From a virus, in the IMG/VR virus record IMGVR_UViG_3300014202_000415: a stretch of 38,031 bases of DNA; one strand, given 5' to 3'. The translations under genes and the position numbers were made by a program. This document shows positions 2,130 to 38,031 of the stretch, piece by piece (the stretch's first letter is position 1; every line of letters starts with the position of its first letter). Below the pieces are notes generated by a model. That model was given only the letters and a program-made list of their open reading frames with translations. It made no database searches and was not told the DNA's origin.

Positions 2130-2327
2130 ATGGAAATAAAAGATATGCCTATAGCAGAGCGCGTTAAAGGCTTCCAAAAAGAGTATAACGAGCTTGCTAC
2201 AAAATGGGGCTGCGATTTTGCCTCAATACTCAAAGCAAGCGCGAGTGCTATAGAGGCGCAAATAGCCGTAAAAGACCTGTGGGATAAGAGAGAGGCCGCA
2301 GGCCATTTAGACAAACTGCCAAACTAG
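2130..2327 (+). CDS. Hypothetical small protein
   Basis: 65-aa ORF with a GAGGAG SD 7 nt upstream; last gene before the terminator at 2362. Confidence 0.6.
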   Translation: MEIKDMPIAERVKGFQKEYNELATKWGCDFASILKASASAIEAQIAVKDLWDKREAAGHLDKLPN

Positions 2328-2334
2328 CTGTAAG

Positions 2335-2344
2335 GTGATATAAT
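2335..2344 (+). promoter_or_regulatory. Extended -10 promoter GTGATATAAT (late class)
   Basis: Exact copy of the 10-mer found at 8 sites. Here it is followed by a hairpin rather than by an ATG. Confidence 0.55.
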
Positions 2345-2361
2345 AAGAGTACGAGGTAATT

Positions 2362-2386
2362 AGCCCGCAACCAGCGGGCTTTTTGT
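2362..2386 (+). terminator. Intrinsic terminator-like hairpin plus U-tract, part of the conserved element 2351-2386
   Basis: AGCCCGC-aacca-GCGGGCT gives a 7-bp stem, followed by TTTTTG. Near-identical element at 32100-32136. Confidence 0.7.
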
Positions 2387-2391
2387 GGTTT

Positions 2392-3297
2392 ATGCTTACA
2401 TACAGCCTATTACAAACGACCTGCCAGGAGGAGAGTAGCGACACAAGCGCGCCCTCACTCTCATTTTTTAAACGTAACATTAACGTAGGGCTGGTGACGC
2501 TGCAAGGCGCTTTGGGCTCGTATTACACCAATGACACCAAAACCGACACCACCATAGCTGGTACCAGCAGTTACAGGTTGCCAGTAAACTGTATACGGTT
2601 AAAGGCCCTCACCATTACAGTAAGTAACATAGAGTACCCAGCGGCAGAGATATACGATGAGGCATTATGGCGCTCTATAAAGGGCAATGCAATTGCACAA
2701 ACGGGCGATATACCCATGTATTATTTTGCACGGCGCGACACGGTAGAGGTTTACCCCACACCAGCAAGTAGCAGCAACACTATTACGCTCTATTTTGAGA
2801 GTGGAGGCAAGGAGTTGGTTGCTGACGACTACACTGACGGTACAATTTTAACGCTTGCTAACCTTGGTACAGCGGTTACGGGCAGCGGCACGACATGGAC
2901 GAGCGCAATGGCAAATAGGTATTTGCGCATAAGCAGTGAGGGTAACTGGTACAAAATAGCCTCTTTTGGTACAACAACCACCCTAACACTGGCAGACAAG
3001 TACCAGGGCATAGCCATTGCGGCAGGCAGTGAGGCATACCGTATTGGTGAGGTACCCAATACCCCGCAGGCAACCCATATTTTACCCGCGTATTTTGCCT
3101 TATGGCGCTATTACGGTGGGGTTAAAAAGGACGCAACCCGCGAGCTACAGTACAGAAAAAATTGGGAGGACGGCCTGAAAGACGCGGTGGCTACCTATGG
3201 CATACGGTACTCCTCAAAGGTGATACCAAGTACACGGGGGCTGCGGCGCGGTATACGGTACTCAAACCCGAACTGGAACCCGCAGGGCATGACATGA
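2392..3297 (+). CDS. Putative head-tail adaptor / tail tubular A-like structural protein
   Basis: 301-aa ORF from ATG 2392 (the ORF track starts at TTG 2383). It lies immediately upstream of the giant tail protein. Assignment is by position only. Confidence 0.6.
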   Translation: MLTYSLLQTTCQEESSDTSAPSLSFFKRNINVGLVTLQGALGSYYTNDTKTDTTIAGTSSYRLPVNCIRLKALTITVSNIEYPAAEIYDEALWRSIKGNAIAQTGDIPMYYFARRDTVEVYPTPASSSNTITLYFESGGKELVADDYTDGTILTLANLGTAVTGSGTTWTSAMANRYLRISSEGNWYKIASFGTTTTLTLADKYQGIAIAAGSEAYRIGEVPNTPQATHILPAYFALWRYYGGVKKDATRELQYRKNWEDGLKDAVATYGIRYSSKVIPSTRGLRRGIRYSNPNWNPQGMT

Positions 3298-6941: not shown

Positions 6942-7178
6942 ATGGACGAGCAAAAAATACGGCAGTTGATACGTGATGAGTTAAGCAGGTTGCACCAAAG
7001 CCAAATACCCGCTGGTACCATAAAACAGCGGCATATTGACGGCATGGTAATTACCCGAGGGTTGGCCGCAGACCTGCCAACAGACGGTGAGCAGGGCATA
7101 CAGGCGTATTTTGCTACCGATACTAACGTGCTCTATATTTGGAATGATAGCGCGTGGGTGAGCGAAACGTTGACGTGA
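6942..7178 (+). CDS. Small tail-fibre-like protein
   Basis: 78 aa from ATG 6942 with an AGAGGAGGA SD. The C-terminal ...YFATDTNVLYIWNDSAW motif resembles motifs common in phage fibre proteins. Confidence 0.6.
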   Translation: MDEQKIRQLIRDELSRLHQSQIPAGTIKQRHIDGMVITRGLAADLPTDGEQGIQAYFATDTNVLYIWNDSAWVSETLT

Positions 7179-7184
7179 TATAAT
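7175..7184 (+). promoter_or_regulatory. Late promoter GTGATATAAT, 7 nt from ATG 7192 (leaderless)
   Basis: TTGACGTGATATAAT-taagtgt-ATGGCA. Confidence 0.65.
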
Positions 7185-7191
7185 TAAGTGT

Positions 7192-8136
7192 ATGGCAGAT
7201 ACAGAGTTTCAACAATTAGCTAAGACAGACCGAAACCCCGCACAGGAAACGAGGTACCAGGAATTGTTAAAAACGCAGGGCGGCAGCGCTGGTGGTATCT
7301 CGCTTAATGATGTGGGCGGCAGCGCGGTAGACTTTGCTAAAGGGTTAAATGCAAGCGAGGACGAGGCATTTAACCAGTACGTTATGAGCCTGCGGGCACA
7401 GGCTAAACCCCTTGATATTTTTACCTCACTTGAGCAAAACGCTGGCTTACCCGAGATGCGCAAAACAGCCACAACCCTACGGGGCCAGGTAGGCAGTATT
7501 GAGGATTTACTTAGCCAGGTAGAGGGTGACGTAAGCGCTACAACCCGTGACAGCTTGGTAACTGAGGCACAACGGCGCGGTATGGTTAGTGCCAAAAAAG
7601 AGCCGTGGATTGAGCGACTAAATAAACTGGCAACCTCACTTGGGCGGGTAGAGCAAGGTATAAGCGCCGCTGGTGCCGATATTAGCCAACGCACGGGGTT
7701 GGTATTACAGGGGCAGCAGCAAGAGTTAGAGCCCTATAAAATGAAAATACAGGTCATGGCTGACCGCAGCGCACGGCTTATGACAGGGTTTACCTCAGAC
7801 CGTGAGGCCAACCTAACTATACTTATGGATAAATTACAACGGGAGCGCCAGCTCGATGATAGAGAGTGGCAAGAGGCAAGCGACCTGGCACAAAGCAAGC
7901 TCGAGTTTGACCAGCAAAAAGAGTTATTAGCCTCAAAATTGGAAACACAAATAGTAGAGCGTGGCGGGCGCAAGGTACTACTTAATATGCAGACAGGTGC
8001 AGTGGTAGCCGACCTTGGCGCAACTGGTGGCGGCGGTGGGGTACCAGCAAACCTTGGTAGTTACTATGGCACCACCACAACAACTAACCCACAAAGCAGT
8101 GGCAGTAGTATAACCGACCTATGGAATGTGGGGTAA
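7192..8136 (+). CDS. Hypothetical virion protein with coiled-coil segments
   Basis: 314-aa ORF. The start ATGGCA lies directly behind a -10 box. Confidence 0.7.
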   Translation: MADTEFQQLAKTDRNPAQETRYQELLKTQGGSAGGISLNDVGGSAVDFAKGLNASEDEAFNQYVMSLRAQAKPLDIFTSLEQNAGLPEMRKTATTLRGQVGSIEDLLSQVEGDVSATTRDSLVTEAQRRGMVSAKKEPWIERLNKLATSLGRVEQGISAAGADISQRTGLVLQGQQQELEPYKMKIQVMADRSARLMTGFTSDREANLTILMDKLQRERQLDDREWQEASDLAQSKLEFDQQKELLASKLETQIVERGGRKVLLNMQTGAVVADLGATGGGGGVPANLGSYYGTTTTTNPQSSGSSITDLWNVG

Positions 8137-10569: not shown

Positions 10570-10579
10570 GTGATATAAT
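10570..10579 (+). promoter_or_regulatory. Late promoter GTGATATAAT, 6 nt from ATG 10586 (leaderless)
   Basis: GGTGATATAAT-atacct-ATGGCA. Confidence 0.65.
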
Positions 10580-10585
10580 ATACCT

Positions 10586-10876
10586 ATGGCAGTAGACGTA
10601 CAGGCAATTAGGGAAGTGTTTAGGCAACAGTTTGGGGGCCAACCCTCACGTGCTGGCGTTGTTGGAGCCCCGCCAGTGAGCCCCGTACAACCACTTACGC
10701 CTAATATGCAAAACCGACAACCCCCACAGCCGAGCCAAGCAGAGGTTACCCCAAGCTCGGGCACTATTAGCGCGTTAGGACAGCAAAAAGGCGAGGCGCA
10801 AGACATTACAAAGGCGTTAATAAAACGATTGGAAAGATTGGGGGGTAATGATGCAGGGGCAGGGGGTATGGTATGA
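10586..10876 (+). CDS. Hypothetical Pro/Gln-rich protein
   Basis: 96-aa ORF starting 6 nt after the -10 box. Confidence 0.6.
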   Translation: MAVDVQAIREVFRQQFGGQPSRAGVVGAPPVSPVQPLTPNMQNRQPPQPSQAEVTPSSGTISALGQQKGEAQDITKALIKRLERLGGNDAGAGGMV

Positions 10877-12419: not shown

Positions 12420-12443
12420 CCAAAAAAACCGAAACCCAAAGAA

Positions 12444-12467
12444 AAGCCCCGTAACAGGGGCTTTTTT
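12444..12467 (+). terminator. Rho-independent terminator ending the late/lysis operon
   Basis: AAGCCCC-gtaaca-GGGGCTT followed by TTTTTT. Confidence 0.8.
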
Positions 12468-13641: not shown

Positions 13642-13656
13642 GGCTAAACTGGATAC

Positions 13657-13685
13657 TTGACAACCACCTAACAATGGGCTATACT
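13657..13685 (+). promoter_or_regulatory. Early promoter TTGACA-17-TATACT with the ACCTAACAAT spacer
   Basis: TTGACAACCACCTAACAATGGGCTATACT. Confidence 0.7.
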
Positions 13686-13705
13686 TAATACGAAAGGTGG
13701 AAAAC

Positions 13706-15493: not shown

Positions 15494-15661
15494 ATGAAAA
15501 AATACCACGCACAACGCATTATGGCAGCCTTAATTAGCATTGGCTTTATGTTCCCATTTTTTTGGTTTTTCCCCCAGGCCGCGGCTATAGTAACTATGTT
15601 TGTTATGTTTTTACTAGGTTACGGGCTTTTGCTGGCCCTTATTTTTACATGGGATTTATGA
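15494..15661 (+). CDS. Small two-TM membrane protein (55 aa)
   Basis: MKKYHAQRIMAALISIGFMFPFFWFFPQAAAIVTMFVMFLLGYGLLLALIFTWDL. ATGA overlap with the next gene. Confidence 0.5.
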   Translation: MKKYHAQRIMAALISIGFMFPFFWFFPQAAAIVTMFVMFLLGYGLLLALIFTWDL

Positions 15662-16098
15662 CTGCCAAACCTCATTGCATAATAGTAGACATAGACGGCA
15701 CACTGGCGCTTATGCAGGGCCGCGGGCCGTTTGAGTATGACAAGGTGGGCACTGACCTACCCAACTGGCCCATTATAGACCTCGTGCGCCGCCTCAAAAT
15801 AAAAGATTACCAAAAAGACATACACGCAATGAAAATAGCCTTGGTGAGCGGTAGAGAGGGCTCGTGCAGGTTGGAAACGGTAAAATGGCTTACCAAACAC
15901 TATGTGCCGTATGACTACCTGTTTATGCGTGAGGTGGGCGACAGGCGCAAAGATACTGAGGTAAAGGCAGAGCTTTACCACAGGTTTATTGAGCCGCAAT
16001 ATGACGTGCACTATATACTCGATGACCGCGACCAGGTGGTAAAAATGTGGCGTAGTTTAGGGCTCACCTGTTTGCAGGTGGCAGAGGGCAATTTTTAG
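15658..16098 (+). CDS. HAD-superfamily phosphatase, polynucleotide-kinase 3'-phosphatase-domain type
   Basis: 146 aa from ATG 15658. Contains IIVDIDGTLA (the DxDGT nucleophile motif), VSGR, and ILDDRDQVVKMWR...GLTCLQVAEGNF. Confidence 0.75.
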   Translation: MTAKPHCIIVDIDGTLALMQGRGPFEYDKVGTDLPNWPIIDLVRRLKIKDYQKDIHAMKIALVSGREGSCRLETVKWLTKHYVPYDYLFMREVGDRRKDTEVKAELYHRFIEPQYDVHYILDDRDQVVKMWRSLGLTCLQVAEGNF

Positions 16099-16099
16099 T

Positions 16100-16564
16100 A
16101 TGACCGACCTGCTCACCATGTTATTTGTTTTTTGGCTTGGGGTAACTAACCCCCATGAGCCACCCGCACAACAACCCAGCATTATTAGTGTTATGAACCG
16201 CGCGCGCAAAGTAAACGGGTTACGCCCGTTAAAAGAAAACGCCCAGCTTAACTTAAGTGCGGGGTACAAAGCCTGCGACATGAGCACGGAAAATTACTTT
16301 AGCCATACGCTGCCTGACGGTACCGCATGGTATTTTTATGTTGCTGCCGCGGGGTATGAGTATGACGCTGTAGGTGAGAACATGGCACGCGACATACCCG
16401 ACCATACCGAGGTGGTGGCACGCCTCTTATTAAGCCCAGGGCATAGGGCCAATATACTTAACCCTCGGTATACAGAGGTTGGGGTAGCAGAGTGTGGCAA
16501 GTATATGGTAACGCACTTTGGCCGCCCGCTAGTAGTCTTTTTTGATGACTTGACAAATAACTAA
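16100..16564 (+). CDS. Secreted or membrane-anchored CAP/SCP (YkwD-like) domain protein
   Basis: N-terminal hydrophobic signal-like segment LLTMLFVFWLGV. CAP pattern NRAR...GLRPL...L..A....C.DM....YFSH....G......GEN.A.......LL.SPGHRANIL...YTEVGVA. Confidence 0.6.
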   Translation: MTDLLTMLFVFWLGVTNPHEPPAQQPSIISVMNRARKVNGLRPLKENAQLNLSAGYKACDMSTENYFSHTLPDGTAWYFYVAAAGYEYDAVGENMARDIPDHTEVVARLLLSPGHRANILNPRYTEVGVAECGKYMVTHFGRPLVVFFDDLTNN

Positions 16565-16578
16565 CAATGAGCTATACT
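16550..16578 (+). promoter_or_regulatory. Early promoter TTGACA-17-TATACT with the ACTAACAAT spacer, 9 nt from ATG 16588
   Basis: TTGACAAATAACTAACAATGAGCTATACT. Embedded in the 3' end of the CAP gene. Confidence 0.7.
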
Positions 16579-16587
16579 ACGTAAGAT

Positions 16588-17055: not shown

Positions 17056-17877
17056 ATGGCAAAAACCAGGACGCAGGCTACAACGCCCGCAGACCCTAAT
17101 ATAGTAGCTATTGAGCGGCTGACCCCTCGGGGGCAGAGCCCGCGCATATACCATGACCTAATAAAAAAGCAGGTGCTTGGTGTTGACAAGTCGGGCTGGG
17201 AGCGCCCGTTTGAGGACTTAATGCTTTTTATGTACGTTGCCAAGCGTACGGGGTTAGACCCGCTTGCACGGCAAATATACGCGGTGTACCGCTGGGATTA
17301 CCGCACGGGTAAAGAGGTTATGACCATACAGGCTGGTATTGACGGCTTGCGGGTTGTAGCACAGCGTACAGGCGAGTACGGCGGCAGTGACGATGCGGTA
17401 TTTGTTGAAAAAGACGACAAACCGCTAAAGGCCACCGTTACCGTATATAAGGTACACAAGCGCACAGGCGAGCGCATGGCAGTAGTAGCCAGTGCTCGGT
17501 ACGGTGAGTACGTACAGGAAAAAGACGGCAAGCCAATGGGTATGTGGGCAAAAATGCCCTTTAACCAGCTTGCTAAATGCGCAGAGGCATTAGCGCTGCG
17601 TAAGGCTTTCCCTAACGTATTAAGTAATGTGTACTCGAGCGACGAAATGGGCCAAGCTGAAAACGGCGGCGTGGAGGCATTACCCCCACCCCCTAAACCA
17701 GCTATGACCGCGACCAATACCAATAAGGCACGGGCAGATAAAAAGGCGGCAGAGGCACCAGAGGTGCCACCTACGCCCCCTGTACCACAGGCTGACAAGC
17801 CAGCGGTAGTAGAGAAGCCCGTCATGGTAGAACAAATAGCTGACCCCGTAGCATTACGGGCAAAGCTAAAGCAGTAA
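17056..17877 (+). CDS. recT: RecT-family single-strand annealing recombinase
   Basis: AAAGGAGG SD. FMYVAKRTGLDPLARQIYAV...IQAGIDGLRVVAQRTGEYGG...WAKMPFNQLAKCAEALALRKAFP matches RecT/Bet hallmark segments. Pro-rich acidic tail. Confidence 0.75.
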   Translation: MAKTRTQATTPADPNIVAIERLTPRGQSPRIYHDLIKKQVLGVDKSGWERPFEDLMLFMYVAKRTGLDPLARQIYAVYRWDYRTGKEVMTIQAGIDGLRVVAQRTGEYGGSDDAVFVEKDDKPLKATVTVYKVHKRTGERMAVVASARYGEYVQEKDGKPMGMWAKMPFNQLAKCAEALALRKAFPNVLSNVYSSDEMGQAENGGVEALPPPPKPAMTATNTNKARADKKAAEAPEVPPTPPVPQADKPAVVEKPVMVEQIADPVALRAKLKQ

Positions 17878-17913
17878 ACGTAATGGCCTGGGGGCGGTGT
17901 AAAAACTGCCCCC

Positions 17914-17942
17914 TTGACATTAACCTAACAATCAACTATACA
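17914..17942 (+). promoter_or_regulatory. Early promoter CCCCTTGACA-17-TATACA with the ACCTAACAAT spacer
   Basis: TTGACATTAACCTAACAATCAACTATACA. Confidence 0.65.
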
Positions 17943-17963
17943 TATAAACAGGAGGAAAAAAAT

Positions 17964-19535: not shown

Positions 19536-19819
19536 TGATTTGTCATAATAAACATTGCCGTTATTGTCGTAAATACCAAAAGCTAATAGAGCAAGGATAT
19601 GCACACATTGGAGGCGGTATTTTTATAAAAATTAGCAGCATAAAAATTGACGGTATAATTACGGCAACTGGCACAGGTGGAGGTACAGTAATGAAATACA
19701 AACGAACTAAACCACGCAGACAAACTAAAAATGTACGCAGTAATTTACGGTGGCTAGGTAACAGCGCACGGCGGTTACCAGCTAATGACAAACGGCAGCT
19801 TTACCGTGCAAAGGAGTAA
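19535..19819 (+). CDS. Hypothetical Cys-rich / basic protein, possibly two products
   Basis: 94-aa ORF with a GGTGGAGG SD. AT-rich interior carrying a TTGACGGTATAAT promoter-like box at 19647-19659. Confidence 0.45.
   Translation: MICHNKHCRYCRKYQKLIEQGYAHIGGGIFIKISSIKIDGIITATGTGGGTVMKYKRTKPRRQTKNVRSNLRWLGNSARRLPANDKRQLYRAKE
19691..19819 (+). CDS. Nested in-frame 42-aa arginine-rich peptide
   Basis: An exact 20-nt copy (19675-19694) of the RBS-start cassette AGGTGGAGGTACAGTAATGA seen at 19519-19538. Product MKYKRTKPRRQTKNVRSNLRWLGNSARRLPANDKRQLYRAKE. Confidence 0.45.
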   Translation: MKYKRTKPRRQTKNVRSNLRWLGNSARRLPANDKRQLYRAKE

Positions 19820-19823
19820 TTTT

Positions 19824-20213
19824 ATGGCTAAGTTTATAATTGAGTTTACTGACGCTGAGGTAGATAACGTTGTGCAGACATTCCAACGCCTCGCAGGCGC
19901 TCAAACCCTCGAGCAAATAAAAGCTACGGTGGCAACAGAGTTTGGCCAGCGCATACAAACAGTTAAAGAGGGTATAGACGCGCTCGAGCATAAAGACAAA
20001 CCCAAAAAACATAAAAGTAAAACTGGTGGCCGCTGGGCCCGTAATTATGACGAGTGTATAAAATGCCACCAACAAGACCAGCCGCACGCAAGCAAAGGGC
20101 TGTGTAAGCGGTGTTACATGGCACGGTGGAGCCGTGAGAAAAAAGCCAAGGTTATTATACCCCTAGATGTGCGCAGTGAGGGGGTAGATACGAGGCCAAA
20201 AAATAGACTATGA
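19824..20213 (+). CDS. Hypothetical protein with a CxxC...CxxC zinc motif
   Basis: 129 aa from ATG 19824 with an AAAGGAG SD. Contains ECIKCHQQDQPHASKGLCKRCY. Confidence 0.6.
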   Translation: MAKFIIEFTDAEVDNVVQTFQRLAGAQTLEQIKATVATEFGQRIQTVKEGIDALEHKDKPKKHKSKTGGRWARNYDECIKCHQQDQPHASKGLCKRCYMARWSREKKAKVIIPLDVRSEGVDTRPKNRL

Positions 20214-20413
20214 AAAGCGGCATTTACAGACCACAACCAGGCGAGTATATAGCGTACGGTAACCCATGGGCAGACCCAAAACACCGCAAAGGGTATTACG
20301 CCGTCATAGCGTTTGCCTGGCATAATGCTAAGCCTATATGGGCGAGTGTGTATATACCAACAAGGGGCGAGGCGGCTTTAACCAATAATTTTACATTATT
20401 TAAAAAACTATGA
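20210..20413 (+). CDS. Hypothetical protein
   Basis: 67-aa ORF with ATGA overlaps on both sides. Confidence 0.55.
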   Translation: MKSGIYRPQPGEYIAYGNPWADPKHRKGYYAVIAFAWHNAKPIWASVYIPTRGEAALTNNFTLFKKL

Positions 20414-20853
20414 GGCGCAGCAACAAGCTATACGACCTGGTGCAGCAGTTACTTTATAACGACCCAACCCTGCGGGGTAGCGACAAACGCCTCATGTGGC
20501 AGGTGTGGAGCCGTTTAGGGTATGTGTTATTTGACGGCCTGGCGTATACGCATTTTATAGATAAAAACTGCCCGACCCCTGAGAGCGTGACCCGTTGCCG
20601 CCGCAAAATACAAGAGCTGCACCCCGAGCTACAGGCAGCCAACAGTACCCGCCGAGCCCGTGCAGACAAAGCAGAGCAAAAAGGCACCCACATATACCGT
20701 GAGCCAGCTAAAAAACTCGCTGACCCATGTATGCGGTGTGGGGTGGGCCGCATGATTGTTAAAGACTTATACGACTACTCAAGTGGCACGGCGGTTAAAA
20801 CAGGCTCATACACTGAGTGTAACCACTGCTACAAACGCGGGCCTGTGATATAA
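20410..20853 (+). CDS. Hypothetical protein with a C-terminal zinc ribbon
   Basis: 147-aa ORF with CMRCG...CNHC. Its stop codon lies inside the next TATAAT box. Confidence 0.6.
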   Translation: MRRSNKLYDLVQQLLYNDPTLRGSDKRLMWQVWSRLGYVLFDGLAYTHFIDKNCPTPESVTRCRRKIQELHPELQAANSTRRARADKAEQKGTHIYREPAKKLADPCMRCGVGRMIVKDLYDYSSGTAVKTGSYTECNHCYKRGPVI

Positions 20854-20854
20854 T
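20845..20854 (+). promoter_or_regulatory. GTGATATAAT promoter, 6 nt from ATG 20861 (leaderless)
   Basis: TGTGATATAAT-acgact-ATGGCA. Confidence 0.6.
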
Positions 20855-20860
20855 ACGACT

Positions 20861-21226
20861 ATGGCAAAAAGCTACCGTAACCGCAAAAAATTATCCACCG
20901 TAGTACCAGGTACTATTTTTACCCCTGACGTAAACGCTCTGACCGTAAGTACCCAAATTAACGGCGCAAAGCTCACGGTGCCAATGAAAATGATAGAGGA
21001 CGACCCTGATATGTTTGAGGAGGTACCTGAGTATTGGAAACCGTTAGACGGGCAAAAATACTATTTTATTGACAGCAATATGGTGGTTGCTTATACAGAC
21101 TACAAACCTGACGAGGACGGCACCCACAAACTACGCTGGGAGGCGCACAACTGTTTTGAAACGTTAGAGCTGGCGCAAGCAGCTTTAACCCGCGTACTCA
21201 AGGTGCTCGCTAAAAATGCAATCTAA
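20861..21226 (+). CDS. Hypothetical protein
   Basis: 121-aa ORF. Confidence 0.6.
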   Translation: MAKSYRNRKKLSTVVPGTIFTPDVNALTVSTQINGAKLTVPMKMIEDDPDMFEEVPEYWKPLDGQKYYFIDSNMVVAYTDYKPDEDGTHKLRWEAHNCFETLELAQAALTRVLKVLAKNAI

Positions 21227-21434: not shown

Positions 21435-21725
21435 ATGCGATTGTTACCTGGAAAATACATCGTTATTTGCAAGGACGCTGGCCCCGAGAAGCTAAAGAGC
21501 GGCTTAGAAATGGTGCGCCAAGACAAAAACCAACCCGAGGTAGGCATCGTGTTTGACCTATATAAAGGTAACCCCCCTAAGACAGACGACAAAAACAAAC
21601 TACCATTCCCCCTAAAAAAAGACGACAAAATAGTATACCGAAAGTATAGTGATAATAAGGTGTATATTGGCGGTGTAGCGTACAATTTTATACGGTTTGA
21701 GGATATTATAGGTAAAATTATTTAA
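21435..21725 (+). CDS. groES: GroES-like co-chaperonin (Cpn10)
   Basis: 96 aa, directly upstream of GroEL. Pattern: N-terminal LLPGKYIV strand, a KSGL mobile-loop-like segment, KKDDKIVYRKY, and C-terminal IRFEDIIGKI. Confidence 0.6.
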   Translation: MRLLPGKYIVICKDAGPEKLKSGLEMVRQDKNQPEVGIVFDLYKGNPPKTDDKNKLPFPLKKDDKIVYRKYSDNKVYIGGVAYNFIRFEDIIGKII

Positions 21726-21738
21726 AGGAGGGTTGACC

Positions 21739-23334
21739 ATGAAAAAACTAACATTTAAAAAAGATGCCCGTAAGTCATTAGTTGCAGGGGTGCAAATGAT
21801 GTATGACGCGGTATGCACCACGCTTGGCCCCAAAGGGCGCAACGTGGCTATTGCCCGCCAGTGGGGCTTGCCTATTATTGTGCATGACGGCGTGACCGTG
21901 GCACGAGAGGTTGAGGCAAAAGACGAGTTTACTAACATGGGTATTAACCTCGTGCGCGAGGCGGCACAAAAAACCAATGACGAGGCGGGTGACGGTACAA
22001 CTACCAGCACTTTGCTTGCGTATAACATTGTAAGCCGCGGTATGGCGCTTTTGGAAAAGGGCACCAACCCCATGAGTTTACGCAATGAGATTAACGCTGC
22101 GCTCGACATACTGCGCGCTGAGCTTGCCAAGCTGGCTGTTAAAACTAACAAAAAAGACGATTTGCAGCGGGTGGCATTTATTAGCTCAAGTGATAAAGAG
22201 ATAGGCGACCTGGTAGGCCAGGCGGTGCATGAGGTGGGTTCTGACGGTGTGGTAGCGGTGGAGGAGAACTACGGGCCCGAAACGGAAACTGAGCACACTG
22301 ACGGTTTGCTCATAGATAAAGGCTGGGTTATACCCCACTTTGTGACCAACGTACAGCGTATGGAGGCAGTTATAGAAAACTGCTGGGTTGTGGTTACCGA
22401 CAAAAAGATAACCGCCCAGGTAGAGATTGCCCCACTATTTGAGGTACTGCTTGCTCAAAATAAAAACATACTGCTTATTGGTGACGTAAGCGGCGATGCG
22501 TTGCGCATGGTGGCCCTCAATAAACAGCGCGGCAACGTAAATGCTATTGTGGTTGAAACACCAGGGCACGGCGACAAGCGCCGCGAGTACCTACAGGATA
22601 TTTGCGTAGCCACGGGCGCACAAATTATTAGCGATGAGCTGGGGTTAAAGCTCGAGGATTTGGCCCAGCAGTTTGACCTCAAGGTAGTAGGCAAAGCCAA
22701 ACAGGTAGTGGCAGACAAAAAGAGCACGGTTATTGTAGGCGGTGGTGGTGACAAAAAGGCTATTGCCGAGCACATATCCAACCTCAAAAAACTGCGTGAT
22801 GCAGAGAAAAACCTATACGAGCGCGAGATTTTAGACGAGCGTATAGCTAAACTGAGCGCAGGCGTTACCGTCATTAAGGTAGGGGCTAAAACAGAGCTTG
22901 AGATGCGTGAGCGGTTAGAGCGTGTTAAAGACGCGGTGGGTGCCGCTAAGGCAGCCCTGCAAGAGGGTATAGTGCCAGGGGGCGGCGTAGCCTTTATACG
23001 GCTTGCCCAGGCGCTTGAGGCTCAAAAAGACCTTACCCAAGGTTCACAGCTTATGGTTGATGTGCTCTATGAGCCCGTACGCAAGCTGCTAGACAATGCA
23101 GGCGAGAGCCCAGCAAAAATGGAGGCATTGCTCGAGAAAATACTGGCCGCTGGCGGCAATAAGGGGTACGAGGTTAATAGCGGTAAGCTCGTGGATATGG
23201 TAGAGCAGGGGATTATTGACCCCACCAAGGTACTGCGGTTATCCTTGGAAAACGCTGTATCGGTAGCCACCAGCATACTTACAACCGATGTACTCATTGT
23301 TGACGAGCTGGTAGAGCCTAAAAAAGGTGATTAA
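21739..23334 (+). CDS. groEL: GroEL-like chaperonin (Cpn60) lacking the C-terminal GGM tail
   Basis: 531 aa from ATG 21739 with an AAAGGAGGG SD. Collinear with bacterial GroEL: TLGPKGRNV, DGVTVAREVE, AGDGTTTSTLLA, GVVAVEE, ETPGHGDKRRE, GGGVAFIR, GIIDPTKV. Confidence 0.9.
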   Translation: MKKLTFKKDARKSLVAGVQMMYDAVCTTLGPKGRNVAIARQWGLPIIVHDGVTVAREVEAKDEFTNMGINLVREAAQKTNDEAGDGTTTSTLLAYNIVSRGMALLEKGTNPMSLRNEINAALDILRAELAKLAVKTNKKDDLQRVAFISSSDKEIGDLVGQAVHEVGSDGVVAVEENYGPETETEHTDGLLIDKGWVIPHFVTNVQRMEAVIENCWVVVTDKKITAQVEIAPLFEVLLAQNKNILLIGDVSGDALRMVALNKQRGNVNAIVVETPGHGDKRREYLQDICVATGAQIISDELGLKLEDLAQQFDLKVVGKAKQVVADKKSTVIVGGGGDKKAIAEHISNLKKLRDAEKNLYEREILDERIAKLSAGVTVIKVGAKTELEMRERLERVKDAVGAAKAALQEGIVPGGGVAFIRLAQALEAQKDLTQGSQLMVDVLYEPVRKLLDNAGESPAKMEALLEKILAAGGNKGYEVNSGKLVDMVEQGIIDPTKVLRLSLENAVSVATSILTTDVLIVDELVEPKKGD

Positions 23335-23629
23335 GCGCTTTCAACTGGTAGAGGTAGCACAAATAACCGCCGAGGACGGCACCTACTTTTATACGCTTGA
23401 CGGCACGTTTATAGGAGGGTGGGAAAATGGGAAAATACTCACAGCCAAAGATGACCCTAACGCACAAGCGGCGGGTGATAAGGACGCTAGAGATAATAGT
23501 GGAAGCCCTGGGGCCGTTGTTAAACCGTTACCCCCACGTGAGCACAGGCGGCAGCAGCAAATTGAAGCCAGCAAAGAAATTAGCACGCTCGAGAGTAGGC
23601 TTGACAAAGCAAAGGGAGATAAACCATGA
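23327..23629 (+). CDS. Hypothetical protein
   Basis: 100-aa ORF that overlaps the groEL stop by 8 nt. Confidence 0.55.
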   Translation: MIKRFQLVEVAQITAEDGTYFYTLDGTFIGGWENGKILTAKDDPNAQAAGDKDARDNSGSPGAVVKPLPPREHRRQQQIEASKEISTLESRLDKAKGDKP

Positions 23630-23913
23630 CAAAATGCCCACGGTGCCAAAAAGAGCCAGCGACCATACACCCGTTTTACGGCGTACTGCCAGGGGTAAAG
23701 TGCCAGGCAAAAGACGCTAAGGGGGTGCGAGTAATGCGCGGGCCCGAGTTTTACGCCCATACTAAGGCGTACAGAATACAGAGCCAGCGCGACAGGTTCG
23801 CTAAAGATTTATTGCAGCCGTATGAGGGCAAAGGGCCAAGCAGAGATTTTGTTAAGGCGTACCCTGACAAAGCAACCGACTACTTTAAAAAAGACGAGCT
23901 AACCAAATTATGA
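23626..23913 (+). CDS. Hypothetical protein
   Basis: 95-aa ORF with an ATGA overlap. Confidence 0.55.
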   Translation: MTKCPRCQKEPATIHPFYGVLPGVKCQAKDAKGVRVMRGPEFYAHTKAYRIQSQRDRFAKDLLQPYEGKGPSRDFVKAYPDKATDYFKKDELTKL

Positions 23914-24627: not shown

Positions 24628-26042
24628 CTGACCAAACAAAATACCGTAAACCATTAACCACGTTGCATGAGTGGGAGCGTAACCCGCGCAGTATAACCAA
24701 GCGGGGTTTTGAGCGCCTTATTTACCAGGTTATTAAGCTCGAGCAGTACAAGCCCATTATTGTTAAAACTGACGGTACCGTATTAGGTGGCAATATGCGC
24801 CACAAGGTATACACCCACATTAGCACCATGCCCCTTACTAAGCTGCGTACCCTTATGCAAAAAATACGCAATGCCGAGGTAAGCCTGGCGCAAGCGCAGG
24901 CACTCAAACAAGAAGTGGATAACCCATGGGTAAGCGAGGTGCACCCCAAAAACGACAGCGAGGCGTTAGAGTATGCGCTAAGTGATAATGACGAGGCAGG
25001 GCATACAGACGAGGATTTATTGGCTAATATGCTACCCGACTTTAAACTAGACGACCCAAGTATGTTTGCCGTGCACTTTACCGACCCACTGGCGTTAAAC
25101 GACCTTATACCTAAAGAGGGTGACGGCTCGGGTACTGGCGCTGGGGCATTGGTTGACAAGTTTTTAGTACCCCCGTTTAGCATACTCGACACACGCCAGG
25201 GCTATTGGGCTGACCGTAAAGACGAGTGGCGCAAGCGTGTTGGTGACAAGGGTGAGAGCCGTGACGAGGTATTAAGCGGGCTTGATAGCCTAAATAAGGG
25301 CAATTTTGACAAGGATATACTCACGGTGAGCATTTTAGACCCTGTACTGGCTGAGCTGGCCGTGCGGTGGTTTTGCCCGCCTGGGGGCACCACCTTTGAC
25401 CCGTTTGCTGGCGATACTATATTTGGCTTTGTAAGCGGCACCCTGGGCAACCCATTTACGGGTATAGAGCTGCGCGAGGCACAGGCAAAGCTCAACCAGG
25501 AGCGCGTGGAGGGGCTGCCAGCCACGTATATTTGCGATGACGGCGTAAACGTATCAAAACACCTCAAACCAGATAGCCAGGATTTGCTATTTAGCTGCCC
25601 ACCCTATTTTGACCTCGAGGTATACAGTGACCTGCCAAATGACGCCAGTAACCAAAAAGACTACCAAAGCTACCTAGAGGTATTAGGTAAGGCGTTTGCC
25701 GCCTCATACGACTGCCTCAAGCCTGACCGTTTCGCGGTCATTGTTATTGGTGACATACGCGACAAAAAAACGGGTGCATACCGTGGTATACCCAGCGACA
25801 TAGTGCGCATTATGACCACCACAGGGTTTGTGCTCTATAACGATGCGGTACTGCTTAATGAAACGGGCACGGGGGCTATACGCGCCTCACGGTACTTTAA
25901 CGGCAGCCGTAAGCTCGTTAAGCTGCACCAAAACGTGCTGGTATTTTACAAAGGTGACATAAAAAAGATACCTGAAAACTACCCAAAGCTAGAGCTACCC
26001 CAAGAGGGTGAGCAGACCGAGGAGGTGGCCCATGAAGTTTAA
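24624..26042 (+). CDS. ParB-like N-terminal domain fused to a DNA methyltransferase
   Basis: N-terminus LHEWERNPR...VLGGNMRH (ParB/Srx-like). C-terminus [15 protein letters not shown] (SAM motif I-like) followed by [13 protein letters not shown] ((S/D/N)PPY catalytic-type motif). Confidence 0.75.
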
Positions 26043-26349
26043 CATACAAACACGCACCTACGGCGCAGAGGGTGATTTTAGCAATAATACGCAGGTGTGG
26101 CAGCAACTCTTATACATAGTGAGCAAGGCGGGCCTTACGCCGCTTGCCGTAGCAAAGCACGAGTTTTACCCCAAGGGGTTAAGTGGTGTAGTTATTATTG
26201 GTGAGAGCCACGTAGCCATACACACCTACCCTGAGTATAACCAAGCACTCATAGTGGTAAGTACCTGTGGGTTAGACGCCAGCGGGCACATATTACGTTT
26301 TAGTATGGCGCTGCAAAAAATATGGAAATCTACCGTAGTAAACCAGTAA
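26032..26349 (+). CDS. speD: S-adenosylmethionine decarboxylase (SpeD/AdoMetDC class 1)-like pyruvoyl proenzyme
   Basis: 105 aa from ATG 26032, overlapping the methyltransferase gene by 11 nt. [38 protein letters not shown] parallels B. subtilis SpeD [38 protein letters not shown], including the E-S self-cleavage site. Confidence 0.8.
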
Positions 26350-26613: not shown

Positions 26614-27039
26614 ATGAGCAAAGCAATTGTTAAACATAAACGAGCAGGTAGACCAACAGTATTTACTAAAAAAGCTGTGGCTTTATTAGTACAGGCGTTT
26701 AAATACGGTTGCAATGATAGTACGGCGTGCCAATACGCTAAAGTGTCAAGAGAGGCATATTACGACCATTTAAAGAAAAACGAGGATTTCGCCACAATTA
26801 TTATGCAGGCACAAAACTACCCACGGCTATTAGCAGGGCAAGTGGTTATACAGAGCATGACTAAAAAGGGTGACGTTATGAGCGCGCGCTGGTGGTTAGA
26901 GAAAAAACACGCTGACGAGTTCGGCGGCGCACCCCCCATACAAAACAATACCCTCAACATATTTAGTTTTACTGACGAGCAAAAAGACACATTTAACACC
27001 CAATTTAGAGATTTTTTACGGAGGAGGCAATATGCGTGA
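26614..27039 (+). CDS. terS: Terminase small subunit (HTH type)
   Basis: KRAGRPTVFTKKAVALLVQAFKYGCNDSTACQYAKVSREAYYDHLKKNEDF is the typical N-terminal HTH of small terminases. Located upstream of TerL. Confidence 0.55.
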   Translation: MSKAIVKHKRAGRPTVFTKKAVALLVQAFKYGCNDSTACQYAKVSREAYYDHLKKNEDFATIIMQAQNYPRLLAGQVVIQSMTKKGDVMSARWWLEKKHADEFGGAPPIQNNTLNIFSFTDEQKDTFNTQFRDFLRRRQYA

Positions 27040-29383: not shown

Positions 29384-29393
29384 GTGATATAAT
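29384..29393 (+). promoter_or_regulatory. Late promoter GTGATATAAT, 6 nt from ATG 29400 (leaderless)
   Basis: CGTGATATAAT-taagct-ATGGCA. Confidence 0.65.
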
Positions 29394-29399
29394 TAAGCT

Positions 29400-31508
29400 A
29401 TGGCAGGTTTTAACGAAACAAACACTTTGGGTGAGGATGAGGCGCGGGTTGGGTTATTGACCCAGGAGGACGCGCTTACCCTCAATATGACCGACCAAGA
29501 CGTAGGCCGCCTTATAAAGGGGCGCATTACCAATAGCGGAAAGTTTTGGGATAAGGAGCTTAACCTCACTAACGTACGCGACAGTAACGAAAAATACTAT
29601 CTCAATAAAGCATTAGACGAGGCCGCCCTATACGAGTACCAGGTGCCATATAAAGATAACCGCATATTTTTGAGCGTGGAAACTATGGTACCTATGGTAA
29701 ACGCCCGTATGGCTATGCCTATTGTGACCGAGGCGCAAGACACGGAGGCATCACGTGAGCTGGCTACTGACCTTGGGTACTCGCTTATGGGGCTGTATGA
29801 CGACCTAAGCCTCAAGCCTAAGTTTAGTATGGTAACCCGCCACTTGGTTATGGGTTTTAGATTGGCGTGTTTAAAGTACAGTTGGGATGCGGGCGGTGGG
29901 TTTTTTGACGAGGAGGGCGAGCCTATGGGTGAGATTGCCGTTAATTGGGTACGGCCCCAGCGCCTCATTATAGACGAGGGAGCAGACGACATTAGTGATG
30001 TACCGCTTATTGCTGAGGTTATAACCAATACGGCTGAGGAGATTATTTTAAAGTACCCCGAGAAGACACAGGAAATATACCGCGAGTTTGGATTTGTTAA
30101 AGGTACACGTAGCCAGTTGGGCAGCAAGCGCAACTACCATGAGGCATGGTTTAGCTATTACGACAAAAAGGGCATAAAGCAAGAGGCTGTAGCCTGGTTG
30201 GTTGGTAATACGCTGCTGGGTAAAATGAAAAACCCGCACTGGAACTATGACGAGTGGGAAACTGACAGTAACGGCGATAAGCACCGCCTCAACTTCTTTA
30301 AACGCCCCCAAAAGCCCTACGTGCTGTTTAACTACATAAACACAGGTAAGTACATACTGGACGATACCAGCTTGACCGAGCAGGCAAGCAACCAACAGGA
30401 CATACTTAATAAGCGTGGGCGGCAAATAGTCGAGAACGCTGACAGCGCCAACAGCGGCACAGTCTATAACAGCGAAATGATAAGCGCCGATGACGTAAGC
30501 AAAATTACGGGTGACCCGAGCGAGCGGGTGGTGGTTAAAGGGCCAGTGGGTAATGCTGCTATGCGGCTGCCAACCAACCTACTGCCCGAGTATGTGCTAC
30601 AGGATAAGTACGATGCACGTAATGAGATTGATAACATTTTTGGTACTCACGCACCTATACGCGGCGAGAAAAGCAAAACAAACACGCTGGGGCAAGAGGT
30701 TATGAGCCAGCGCAGTGACCTTGGCCGCACACAAACGCTTGCTGATGCTATGGAGGGTGGCGGCACACGGCTGTACCAAGGGTTAGTGCAAATGATGAAA
30801 GTATTTTGGGATACGCCACAAAAGGTACAGTACACGGGCGCTGACGGTAAAACCATGTTTTTAGAGTTTAGCCGTAACATGATACAAGACGGGGTAAAGG
30901 TACGGGTTAAAGCGGGTAGCGTGCTGCCTGACGACAAGTTTACTAAGCGGGAGGAAACGCTAAAGGCGCTGGCACTGCTTGACCCATTAAGCATTGCCGA
31001 GGGCTTGAGTAAGCCGAACCCCAAGGAGTTTGCTAAGCGCATGGTGCTGTTTAAAGCATTTTTGCCACGCTATATGACCGAGGTACTGCAAGACGCAGGC
31101 GAGGGGCAGGTAGACGCTGACGCACTCGACCACATTAAGAAGCTCAACTATGGTGAGCTGGTGCAACCAGGTAAAGAGGTTAAAAAAGAACACCTGGCTA
31201 CCCATGAGGTGTTTATAAAAAGCGATGAGTTTAAAGAGTTGACCCCCGAGGTGCGACAGCTACACTTTGCCCATGTACGCATGGAGCTTACTGTTGCTAA
31301 AGAGGCATTAGGTATGGATGGTGGCACTGAGGCACCGCCAGGTGGGCCGTTAGGTGAGGCTACCCCAGGTGGTGAGGGTACGGGTTTACCAGGGCAAGCA
31401 CCGCCAGGTGGTGAGGGTGAGCCAGCAGCCCCAGCACTACCAATGGGCGGGCAGGGTAATTTTGTGCAGGCACTTATGGCTCGGTTAAAGGGCGGTGGGC
31501 AGCAGTAG
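29400..31508 (+). CDS. Portal protein
   Basis: 702-aa ORF just downstream of terL, with portal-typical size. Gly/Pro-rich acidic C-terminal tail. Assignment by position and size. Confidence 0.65.
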   Translation: MAGFNETNTLGEDEARVGLLTQEDALTLNMTDQDVGRLIKGRITNSGKFWDKELNLTNVRDSNEKYYLNKALDEAALYEYQVPYKDNRIFLSVETMVPMVNARMAMPIVTEAQDTEASRELATDLGYSLMGLYDDLSLKPKFSMVTRHLVMGFRLACLKYSWDAGGGFFDEEGEPMGEIAVNWVRPQRLIIDEGADDISDVPLIAEVITNTAEEIILKYPEKTQEIYREFGFVKGTRSQLGSKRNYHEAWFSYYDKKGIKQEAVAWLVGNTLLGKMKNPHWNYDEWETDSNGDKHRLNFFKRPQKPYVLFNYINTGKYILDDTSLTEQASNQQDILNKRGRQIVENADSANSGTVYNSEMISADDVSKITGDPSERVVVKGPVGNAAMRLPTNLLPEYVLQDKYDARNEIDNIFGTHAPIRGEKSKTNTLGQEVMSQRSDLGRTQTLADAMEGGGTRLYQGLVQMMKVFWDTPQKVQYTGADGKTMFLEFSRNMIQDGVKVRVKAGSVLPDDKFTKREETLKALALLDPLSIAEGLSKPNPKEFAKRMVLFKAFLPRYMTEVLQDAGEGQVDADALDHIKKLNYGELVQPGKEVKKEHLATHEVFIKSDEFKELTPEVRQLHFAHVRMELTVAKEALGMDGGTEAPPGGPLGEATPGGEGTGLPGQAPPGGEGEPAAPALPMGGQGNFVQALMARLKGGGQQ

Positions 31509-31515: not shown

Positions 31516-31525
31516 GTGATATAAT
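31516..31525 (+). promoter_or_regulatory. Late promoter GTGATATAAT, 9 nt from ATGGCA 31535
   Basis: TTGACGTGATATAAT, the same 15-mer as at 7170-7184. Confidence 0.6.
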
Positions 31526-31534
31526 ATGTTTATT

Positions 31535-31720
31535 ATGGCAAAAGCAAATGCAAAAGCACCAGTAGGACAAGGCGGCAAGTTTGCAGCTATGAAACAGCGG
31601 CTTGCTAAGCAAAAGGGTGATAAAAAGGTAGAAGACCCAGGCGCTATGGCAGCGTTTATTGGACGTAAAAAATACGGCCCGCACCAAATGGCAATGATGG
31701 CCCGAGCAGGGAGAAAATAA
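31535..31720 (+). CDS. Small basic head-module protein
   Basis: 61 aa from ATGGCA 31535. ...GGKFAAMKQRLAKQKG...PGAMAAFIGRKKYG... is a pattern recurrent next to portals in many phages. Confidence 0.55.
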   Translation: MAKANAKAPVGQGGKFAAMKQRLAKQKGDKKVEDPGAMAAFIGRKKYGPHQMAMMARAGRK

Positions 31721-31721
31721 T

Positions 31722-32021
31722 ATGATGGGTATGCACGTAGAAGATGGCCCCAATGATTACGAAAAGCGTATGCGCGAGCGTAACGCCGCAATGAAAAAGC
31801 GGCTTGAGAAGCTACCACAAAACGCCGTGGTACAGACAGCAACCAAGCGGGTAACTAAAACACTCACCGAAAAAGAGAACCGCGACAAGTGGGAGGCGGT
31901 AGACAGCCTAGTAAGTGCCGCATACGGGCAGTTTTGTGACGGTGACCTATCATTTATAGAGGCAACCAAAGGATTAGGGGAGGCGATTAGCGCCTTGGCA
32001 AAGGGCGATAAAACGGCTTGA
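31722..32021 (+). CDS. Hypothetical head-module protein
   Basis: 99-aa ORF. Confidence 0.55.
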   Translation: MMGMHVEDGPNDYEKRMRERNAAMKKRLEKLPQNAVVQTATKRVTKTLTEKENRDKWEAVDSLVSAAYGQFCDGDLSFIEATKGLGEAISALAKGDKTA

Positions 32022-32048: not shown

Positions 32049-32076
32049 TTGACAAAACGACTAACTTTGATATAAT
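32049..32076 (+). promoter_or_regulatory. Capsid-operon promoter CCCCTTGACA-16-TATAAT with TG extension
   Basis: TTGACAAAACGACTAACTTTGATATAAT. Confidence 0.7.
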
Positions 32077-32110
32077 ACGTGCTTAATACAGTATAAATAA
32101 CGAGGCAATA

Positions 32111-32136
32111 AGCCCGCAATTGGCGGGTTTTTTTGT
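32111..32136 (+). terminator. Terminator-like hairpin plus U-tract inside the capsid mRNA leader (conserved element 32100-32136)
   Basis: AGCCCGC-aattg-GCGGGTT followed by TTTTTTG; about 83% identical to 2351-2386. Confidence 0.7.
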
Positions 32137-32162
32137 TCTCAAAAAAGTAAAGGAGTACAAAT

Positions 32163-34032: not shown

Positions 34033-34056
34033 AATGGCCCCTCGTTTGGGGCCATT
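34033..34056 (+). terminator. 9-bp hairpin after the head genes (partial terminator / attenuator)
   Basis: AATGGCCCC-tcgttt-GGGGCCATT. The downstream T-tract is weak (ATTGTATTT). Confidence 0.45.
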
Positions 34057-34209: not shown

Positions 34210-34233
34210 TGTTAATTTAAAAGGAGGCACAAT

Positions 34234-36228: not shown

Positions 36229-36234
36229 CAACTA

Positions 36235-36266
36235 CCCCGCTTGGGAAACCAGGCGGGGTTTTTTGT
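36235..36266 (+). terminator. Rho-independent terminator
   Basis: CCCCGCTTGG-gaaa-CCAGGCGGGG gives a 10-bp stem (one G-U pair), followed by TTTTTTG. Confidence 0.8.
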
Positions 36267-36278
36267 GGCTTACAAAGC

Positions 36279-36288
36279 GTGATATAAT
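36279..36288 (+). promoter_or_regulatory. Late promoter GTGATATAAT, 6 nt from ATG 36295 (leaderless)
   Basis: CGTGATATAAT-aggggt-ATGGCA. Confidence 0.65.
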
Positions 36289-36294
36289 AGGGGT

Positions 36295-37343: not shown

Positions 37344-37353
37344 GTGATATAAT
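37344..37353 (+). promoter_or_regulatory. Late promoter GTGATATAAT, 6 nt from ATG 37360 (leaderless)
   Basis: TGTGATATAAT-ataaac-ATGAAA. Confidence 0.65.
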
Positions 37354-37359
37354 ATAAAC

Positions 37360-37842: not shown

Positions 37843-38031
37843 ATGCAAGCAGCACAACAGCTTTTAGTATTGCAGGCAGACATACGCCAGTTAGAGCGTA
37901 AAAAGGGTAATTTACTCGCATTTTTAGACCGCACAGGCCAGCAATTACTTGAGGCACGCAGTGAAGTTGCTGAGTACAAACGCCAAAAACAGCAACTCTA
38001 TACCCGCATACGCATTTTACTAAGCACCATA
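37843..38031 (+). CDS. 5' part of the junction-spanning coiled-coil protein gene (continues at base 1; bases 37941-38031 duplicate 1-91)
   Basis: ATG at 37843, three bases after the preceding stop. The frame is open to the window end and continues in phase into 1..154. Confidence 0.55.
   Translation, partial: MQAAQQLLVLQADIRQLERKKGNLLAFLDRTGQQLLEARSEVAEYKRQKQQLYTRIRILLSTI
37941..38031. repeat. Terminal 91-bp direct overlap, copy 2
   Basis: Exact duplicate of bases 1-91. Confidence 0.9.

Follow-up and report, generated by a model that had tools for sequence, protein, structure and literature searches.

In the pyrG leader of Bacillus subtilis, the extreme 5' end of the transcript pairs with the 5' arm of the terminator hairpin. 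A leader of similar layout was analyzed here in the 38,031-nt stretch of IMG/VR virus record IMGVR_UViG_3300014202_000415 (the window), in which an element of roughly 36 nt stands downstream of a promoter twice, once before the adaptor gene of the tail module (copy 1) and once before the major capsid protein gene (copy 2). Each copy carries a terminator hairpin, T, and a short helix near its 5' end, P1 (Table 1). As judged from sequence, the element is a candidate for a new family of cis-regulatory leaders in a large group of uncultured phages.

By analogy, the pyrG leader is the closest architecture known to us. Both leaders are very short and comprise a 5' end and an intrinsic terminator without a leader peptide, and in both the 5' end is expected to pair with the 5' arm of the terminator. 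The pyrG leader starts with a run of G, and extra G residues added by CTP-sensitive reiterative transcription prevent attenuation (Meng, Turnbough and Switzer, 2004, as cited in PMC4448216), whereas the pairing segment here is templated (G-A plus 3-5 nt), no nucleotide sensing is evident, and the start regions (ACGAGG, AGAGG, AGAAG) contain no homopolymer run of 3 or more. The ribonucleic antiterminator (RAT) targets of BglG, SacY and LicT and the targets of ANTAR proteins are likewise small hairpins that overlap the 5' arm of a terminator and act on that one terminator; being weaker than it, they work only with a factor bound. A RAT measures ~29 nt and an ANTAR target is a dual hexaloop; P1 (3-5 bp, bulged A, A-rich loop) matches neither, and searches of the window yielded neither a CAT-PRD nor an ANTAR protein.

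The PR'-tR'/Q system of phage lambda (6S RNA) shares a strong constitutive promoter, a near terminator before the late genes and a short default RNA. Its terminator lies at +194, whereas here it would lie at ~+35 or ~+52, several cassettes occur per genome, and no Q homolog and no Q-binding or pause elements were found. The put RNA of phage HK022 consists of two stem-loops (~65-70 nt) that act in cis and are not terminators. Unlike put, the present leader has 35-55 nt and a single stable hairpin, itself a predicted terminator.

In jumbo phage 201phi2-1, terminators were mapped directly downstream of capsid-gene promoters and premature-termination RNAs from a 5' UTR (untranslated region) were mapped before a tail gene, for which the authors hypothesise a timing control based on antitermination (PMC11512511). 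The window resembles 201phi2-1 and phiKZ in gross layout and in the gene classes concerned, capsid and tail (PMC11512511), but these phages are unrelated, have their own RNA polymerases and promoters and have no competing 5' helix described, and the RNA ends measured there are predicted here. The promoter early stem-loops (PeSLs) of T4-type phages place a stem-loop upstream of the AT-rich region of a promoter, as a terminator or attenuator for upstream transcription (PMC2839356, PMC4122927). They too form repeated cassettes of promoter and stem-loop whose copies are alike within a genome; their order, however, is the ordinary one, as at 36234-36288 of the window, and they flank ORFans in hyperplastic regions, not core structural genes. 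The conserved strong 5' sequence of STAB-SD stabilisers, which resembles a Shine-Dalgarno (SD) sequence, does not recur here: GAGG is present in the window and in one relative (L016), and relatives carry other sequences in its place.

Table 1. Coordinates of the two leaders, the genes behind them and a comparator of ordinary order in the window.
Feature	Position	Strand	Description
Copy 1 promoter	2316-2344	+	weak -35 CTGCCA (2316-2321), 17-nt spacer, extended -10 TGATATAAT (2336-2344)
Copy 1 5' motif with candidate antiterminator helix P1	2351-2368	+	ACGAGGUAAUUAGCCCGC
Copy 1 terminator T	2362-2386	+	stem 2362-2368 with 2374-2380, AGCCCGC/GCGGGCU
Adaptor gene	2392-3297	+	SU10-like, first of tail module; Pfam PF24175, E = 8e-8
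Copy 2 promoter	32049-32076	+	TTGACA (32049-32054), 16-nt spacer, TG-extended TATAAT = TGATATAAT (32068-32076)
Copy 2 5' motif and helix P1	32100-32117	+	ACGAGGCAAUAAGCCCGC
Copy 2 terminator T	32110-32136	+	stem 32110-32117 with 32123-32130, AAGCCCGC/GCGGGUUU
Major capsid (head) protein gene	32163-33230	+	PHROG 9953, E = 3e-46
Comparator, ordinary order	36234-36297	+	terminator 36234-36259 (-22.9 kcal/mol), TGATATAAT 36280-36288, leaderless ATG 36295

Two leaders in the window

What an earlier first-pass annotation had stated of the sequence at copy 1, at copy 2 and at 36235-36288 holds throughout. In copy 1, GTGATATAAT at 2335-2344 is followed by the element ACGAGGTAATTAGCCCGCAACCAGCGGGCTTTTTGT at 2351-2386. 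Copy 2 (32100-32136) is 82% identical to it, ungapped, and lies 27 nt ahead of the capsid SD and ATG. The stem arms are conserved between the copies, and a C to T change in the 3' arm of copy 2 keeps pairing as G-U. Hairpin T has 7 bp (6 G-C), the 5-nt loop AACCA and a U-tract at 2380-2384 followed by GU in copy 1, and 8 bp (5 G-C, 1 G-U), the 5-nt loop AAUUG and seven U at 32128-32134 in copy 2. The minimum free energy (MFE) of the leader, calculated over a 41-nt stretch, was -14.9 kcal/mol for copy 1 (z = -2.5 against shuffles) and -17.1 kcal/mol for copy 2 (z = -4.0); the full copy 2 leader from its predicted start gave z = -3.1. The adaptor gene lacks an SD; its ATG follows the terminator stem by 11 nt and the hairpin with U-tract (2362-2385) by 6 nt. 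ATG 2392 is the true start, the N-terminus (MLTY/MLSY) being conserved in relatives. The capsid gene has an SD of its own, AAGGAG, at 32150-32155.

The copy 2 promoter is the sole 12/12 (perfect sigma-70) match in the window and its top-scoring promoter, and that of copy 1 scores 10/12 with TG. Nine exact sites of TGATATAAT were found in the window, all of them on the + strand. An ATG follows the last T of this sequence after 6 nt at sites 10571, 20846, 29385, 36280 and 37345, and after 7 nt at 7176. A step of 7 nt from the last T of the -10 to the start site is the canonical distance, and the six sites look like genuine promoters. Because these six sites keep a fixed distance to the ATG, the same rule puts the start of copy 1 at A2351, the first base of the conserved element, with P1 beginning at +2 and T at +12. 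The start of copy 2 is predicted at ~32083, 17 nt ahead of the element. A hairpin-bearing leader is found behind only two of the TGATATAAT promoters, those of copies 1 and 2.

Five strict terminators were counted on the + strand of the window, two of which start 10-45 nt behind a TGATATAAT site (p ~7e-4 by our own arithmetic). The 18-nt core of the element has 2 exact occurrences against 0.21 matches expected at 3 or fewer mismatches. A covariance model of the element found two copies only, at 2349-2389 (35.4 bits) and at 32098-32137 (43.3 bits); degenerate extra copies at 25264 and 26409, both inside open reading frames (ORFs), have no hairpin and were missed by this model, and they were rejected. 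The order of terminator, then promoter, is used at the comparator locus and at 6680 of relative L016, so the inverted order is no constraint of the genome.

Two resemblances were noted within the leaders. The motif GAGG(C/T)AAT(A/T)AG (2353-2363, 32102-32112) is similar to the usual ribosome binding site (RBS) of this phage, GGAGGCAAT..ATG, except that AAG or TAG replaces the start codon (RBSs compared: 27015-27034, 34218-34236, 405-424). Between the capsid promoter and the copy 2 motif, TATAAATA at 32092-32099 equals the T4 late promoter consensus, which is probably a coincidence.

Conservation in related phages

Relatives were capsid loci from viral contigs and assemblies, of which the 140 nt upstream of the capsid gene were compared. 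A metagenome scan with the single capsid protein gave 2 loci, and an alignment-based scan of viral contigs proved the productive one. At 49-74% capsid identity, the layout was present in 34 of 44 non-identical capsid leaders under strict criteria and in at least 2 more by eye. The conserved order starts with a strong promoter and a purine motif (A)GA(G/A), continues with a GC hairpin and its U-tract, and reaches the ATG after a short A/U-rich spacer. A clade at 35-41% capsid identity showed a variant layout in 14 of 24 leaders (TTGCAA...TAnnnT, AGGCAA, an AGCCCC hairpin with Us, ~30 nt, SD). The 5' motif was located by the script in 32 leaders, of which 31 have at least 6 U within the 8 nt that follow the stem and 23 have a best promoter candidate with perfect TTGACA.

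Besides capsid genes, adaptor genes have the element in front of them in L016, L028, L050, L061 and L068, and it occupies a third position in L039, L068 and L089. When the covariance model was run on 53 sources, all leader-located hits were on the coding strand. The order of promoter, then terminator, before capsid and adaptor genes is real, orientation-specific and conserved over deep divergence, and the element is present in relatives in front of both gene classes. It is this conservation that gives the decisive evidence for an element not due to chance. Copies within a genome share a mean identity of 0.77, as against 0.64 for orthologous copies between genomes, and they are most alike in the part comprising the motif and P1 (L061, for example, has identity at 19 of the first 20 nt). 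Such a pattern is to be expected where a genome-specific factor reads the sites, and gene conversion between copies would fit it as well.

No window hit reached the gathering threshold in Rfam 15; the best one below it (Trp_leader, 24.1 bits against 41) reflects generic similarity among terminators. No nucleotide match to either element region was found among GenBank phages, which makes the phage novel at the DNA level. A scan of viral contigs with the exact pattern ACGAGGNAATNAGCCCGC gave 11 hits, all within coding sequence and without a hairpin, which were discarded as chance matches.

Some capsid leaders depart from the layout downstream of the 5' helix. In L046 and L054 (9860-10000), the helix AGAGGUC...GACC is kept and the terminator has given way to a long hairpin rich in A/U, with an SD-like AAAGGGG in its 3' arm, 4-6 nt ahead of the ATG. 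The capsid leaders of L052 and L057 keep the same 5' helix, with a region lacking a U-tract in place of the terminator.

Two competing helices

A covariation analysis in related phages, as had been proposed in the first pass, found both T and P1 to covary. For the T stem, 96% of cells were paired and two-sided changes were seen in 7 of 8 pairs; none of 500 shuffles was as good, and slid controls gave 29-57%. P1 is formed by the nucleotides that follow an invariant G-A (22 of 22 elements) and pair with the first nucleotides of the 5' arm of T, giving 3-5 bp around an A-rich loop. On the MAFFT alignment, 86% of its cells were paired and 10 cells were changed on both sides, with none of 500 shuffles as good and slid controls at 18-51%. 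In a swap test across 34 leaders, P1 scored 8.65 against 7.37 +/- 0.26, and none of 5000 permutations was as high.

The pairs found in P1 vary widely in sequence (GGC/GCC, GGU/ACC, GUC/GAC, GAC/GUC, AGUCU/AGACU, GGUCU/AGACC, GGUUA/UAACC). Paralogous copies of L039 show a compensatory change from AGCA/UGCU to GGCA/UGCC or the reverse while the 3' arm of T stays GGGC, which favours a real pairing between the 5' end and the 5' arm of T. In all 30 of 30 elements P1 was the MFE fold of the nascent leader, always directly after the invariant G-A.

In copy 1, P1 pairs 2352-2367, 2353-2366, 2355-2365, 2356-2364 and 2357-2363 (U-G), with A2354 bulged and a loop at 2358-2362; the nascent 24-mer has an MFE of -3.6 kcal/mol. 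In copy 2 the pairs are 32101-32116, 32102-32115, 32104-32114, 32105-32113 and 32106-32112, with A32103 bulged, and the nascent MFE is -5.5 kcal/mol (ensemble frequency 0.92). P1 of the window (5 bp with the bulged A) takes 5 nt of the 5' arm of T, out of 7 paired positions for copy 1 and 8 for copy 2. Since its 3' arm (2363-2367; 32112-32116) lies inside the 5' arm of T, P1 and T are mutually exclusive. P1 as a DNA operator of a dimeric protein was also considered and rejected (half-sites 3-5 bp, spacer 3-15 nt).

Search for regulators and antitermination signals

Searches of all but a few small ORFs with Pfam, PHROGs and NCBIfam found no homolog of Q, N or another antiterminator, although remote homologs may exist, and the same three databases gave no regulator among the early proteins. 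The factors suggested in the first pass (19691-19819, 19824-20213 and 20410-20853) showed no informative homology. No match to boxA (CGCTCTTTA-like) was found within 2351-2391 or 32083-32162, no leader-peptide ORF was found in the leaders, and by eye no -10-like pause element was recognised in the initial transcribed region. Terminators follow downstream on the + strand at 34033, 35237 and 36234, together with many internal promoters in the late region; this punctuation argues against a processive, terminator-resistant polymerase.

A Zn-ribbon protein at 23626-23913 (95 aa, N-terminal CxxC...C) received no family assignment. It is the most widely conserved small protein of non-structural kind (15 relative loci, 42-55% identity), and in L017 its homolog follows a NinG-like gene. 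It was considered as a candidate factor and set aside; it also occurs in relatives without the terminator, and few homologs are indexed.

A proposed local attenuator and its alternatives

The element is tentatively read as a local terminator/antiterminator attenuator that needs a factor, as distinct from processive antitermination of the lambda Q/N/put type; this is plausible, although we would stop short of calling it probable. A sigma-70-type host promoter would fire, and the first 17-18 transcribed bases of the element would fold as P1, the 3' arm of which is the 5' arm of T. A canonical intrinsic terminator (GC stem, 6-8 U) comes directly after P1. By default T would form, being 9-12 kcal/mol more stable than P1 in the window, and the polymerase would release a short RNA, ~35 nt long from copy 1 and ~52 nt long from copy 2. 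Transcription of the capsid or adaptor gene would proceed only while P1 holds the 5' arm of T. P1 is too weak to do so alone, so a phage or host factor is expected to stabilise it, in the manner of RAT and BglG, or otherwise to suppress T. Action would be local to one terminator, and the polymerase would not be made processively resistant to terminators. Alternatively, the switch may merely set a constant fraction of read-through. From this arrangement we infer termination at T in vivo, regulated read-through and the existence of a factor. The first-pass proposal that late structural expression is gated by antitermination is kept in part: a regulatory terminator is likely, supported by the conserved order and by a covarying helix that excludes the terminator, and a lambdoid mechanism is unlikely.

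One specific form of the attenuator is doubtful: P1 may serve as operator for an RNA-binding antiterminator that is phage-specific and has so far escaped recognition, with a P1 sequence co-evolved in each lineage. If so, binding would free capsid and tail transcription on time, and the element would be a new minimal late-gene switch in a large family of uncultured phages. This family has no recognisable sigma factor or antiterminator. What is offered here is a candidate switch of ~36 nt, with two covarying and exclusive helices, before capsid and tail modules in dozens of divergent genomes. It would make a new entry for an RNA-family database and a handle on the trans-acting factor. If it gives only a fixed leak, it would still be a compact natural part that tunes a consensus promoter.

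Several observations weigh against the attenuator. P1 is weak (-1 to -6 kcal/mol), its stability against shuffles is not significant (mean z = -0.7), and every full leader has T (-10 to -18 kcal/mol) as its MFE fold; being weaker than T, P1 could not act unaided. With only 3-5 bp in P1 and with related sequences, the shuffle statistics overstate independence, and composition alone predicts part of the pairing (GG with CC). The distance from the -10 to the motif ranges over 2-26 nt, so the motif is not always at the 5' end of the RNA (the distance is at most 9 nt for 18 of 31 relatives). L046, L052, L054 and L057 keep P1 or the hairpin without a U-tract, so the hairpin may serve a function other than termination. 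No RNA-binding regulator or sigma factor was recognised among the window proteins with Pfam, PHROGs and NCBIfam. Finally, unless read-through is efficient, the phage would pay a high price for a terminator ahead of the protein that it needs in the largest amount.

Among the alternatives, a 5' UTR element for stability or translation fares best, and it too is doubtful. The hairpin would shield the 5' end of the mRNA, as in ompA or in the leader stabilisers of phages, with termination partial and incidental, and the U-rich and A/U-rich tract would serve genes frequently devoid of an SD as a translational enhancer of S1 type. The hairpin stands 12-35 nt ahead of the ATG with an SD between the two in just 3 of 32 relatives, the adaptor gene of the window has no SD, and the hairpin is retained in the variants L046 and L054, which have no U-tract. 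In full leaders the 5' purines (AGAG) can also pair with the U-tract and so close the 5' end into a long helix, as in the MFE folds of L049, L051 and window copy 2. The window motif GAGGCAAT is RBS-like without a start codon, which recalls STAB-SD stabilisers; however, the SD-like GAGG is not conserved, relatives having AGAGUC, AGAGAC or AGAAGC. The missing SD is unspecific, as low-GC relatives lack an SD at most genes, and for the same reason the idea that an SD-less capsid gene is special was rejected. A stabiliser has no need of a U-tract next to the stem, but in 31 of 32 leaders 6 or more of the 8 nt there are U, and the covariation of P1, a competitor of the hairpin, is left unexplained. 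With 14-26 nt between the -10 and the motif, copy 2 and several relatives would have a single-stranded 5' tail of ~10-20 nt (~17 nt in copy 2 from the predicted start), and such a tail would defeat a stabiliser based on a 5'-terminal hairpin. Bridging of an SD by the hairpin, in the manner of T4 gene 38, was considered separately and rejected: it would leave a variable effective SD-ATG spacing of 13-28 nt, the motif is retained beside a normal SD, and GAGG is not conserved.

It is unlikely that the cassettes are genes for short non-coding RNAs (~35-55 nt, 2-3 paralogs per genome) that act in trans as sponges or small RNAs (sRNAs), with leakage supplying the structural mRNA. A promoter and terminator without an ORF are the anatomy of an sRNA gene, the 5' segment is conserved and single-stranded, a U-tail is present, and the promoter is the strongest of the genome; sRNAs derived from 5' UTRs by premature termination have been reported in jumbo phages (PMC11512511). 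The supposed seed, however, covaries with its own terminator arm and is not conserved in sequence, which points to folding in cis. The element always lies directly 5' of a structural gene on the same strand, no target was identified, and the weak likeness to Hfq-binding prophage sRNAs (isrK, 18.3 bits; AsxR, 18.1 bits) is, as for Rfam matches in general here, far under threshold and that of generic terminators.

Slightly less credible again is an ordinary operon-end terminator for the upstream genes (2130-2327; 31722-32021), with a promoter that merely overlaps the gap and no switch. Each hairpin does lie 35-90 nt past the stop codon of the upstream gene, in a late region punctuated by terminators. 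Against this, the inverted order is kept from 74% to ~35% capsid identity at 2-3 sites per genome while the ordinary order is used elsewhere in the same genomes, the best promoter of the genome would be wasted, and the conserved G-A motif and the covarying P1 would be unexplained. Lambdoid processive antitermination (Q, N/nut or put RNA), in which a modified polymerase ignores all later terminators, is very improbable: the strong constitutive promoter with a close terminator before late genes follows the logic of lambda PR'-tR', and the likeness of copies within a genome resembles nutL/nutR, but the analogies drawn in the first pass lack support in view of the Q or N homolog not detected in the ORFs scanned, the leaders without boxA or a pause element visible by eye, the one hairpin against two in put, the lack of an Rfam match, and a late region whose terminators at the three downstream sites and internal promoters would be pointless behind a processive complex.

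Genome context and other observations

With an exact 91-nt repeat at both ends (1-91 = 37941-38031), the window is a complete genome, either circularly assembled or terminally redundant, that measures 37,940 bp and has every gene on the + strand. Homologs of the capsid protein numbered 1419 at E <= 1e-30. Some capsid relatives were binned with metagenome-assembled genomes of Patescibacteria (candidate phyla radiation, CPR), namely Woesebacteria, Berkelbacteria, Parcubacteria, Gracilibacteria and Nealsonbacteria, and the distant relatives include a TM7 phage (L102-L110, MG269973). Because of this binning, the host range of the phage family may be CPR bacteria, with mis-binned phage contigs as another possibility.

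Stretches of leaderless type were found at 7176-7194, 10571-10588, 20846-20863, 29385-29402, 36280-36297 and 37345-37362, and also at 31517-31537. The ATG behind such a TGATATAAT is usually ATGGCA without an SD, and the predicted start is the A of the ATG. From sequence, at least 6 late or middle genes, the portal gene among them, look like genes expressed as leaderless mRNAs. The same layout was seen in relatives (L016 at 732, 6724 and 8258; L017 at 13479 and 15096; L036 at ~12950). A second promoter class has TTGACA, a 17-nt spacer with conserved CTAACAAT, and TATACT (297-338, 13646-13687, 16539-16580, 17903-17944), with 3 of its 4 copies in the early region. A hybrid form, TTGACA...CTAAC joined to TGATATAAT, is the capsid promoter at 32049.

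The phage encodes its own chaperonin pair, GroES (Cpn10, 21435-21725) and GroEL (Cpn60, 21733-23334), which is also found in relatives (L018, L034, L053 and others). Accessory genes include a polynucleotide kinase-like gene (15562-16098), an S-adenosylmethionine decarboxylase-like gene (26008-26349) and a RecT recombinase gene (17056-17877). At the end of the lysis module, the symmetric hairpin of 12442-12465 (AAAAGCCCC-GTAACA-GGGGCTTTT) is flanked by an A-tract and, opposite to it, a T-tract; it resembles a bidirectional terminator at the boundary of late and early genes, despite the one-strand gene layout.

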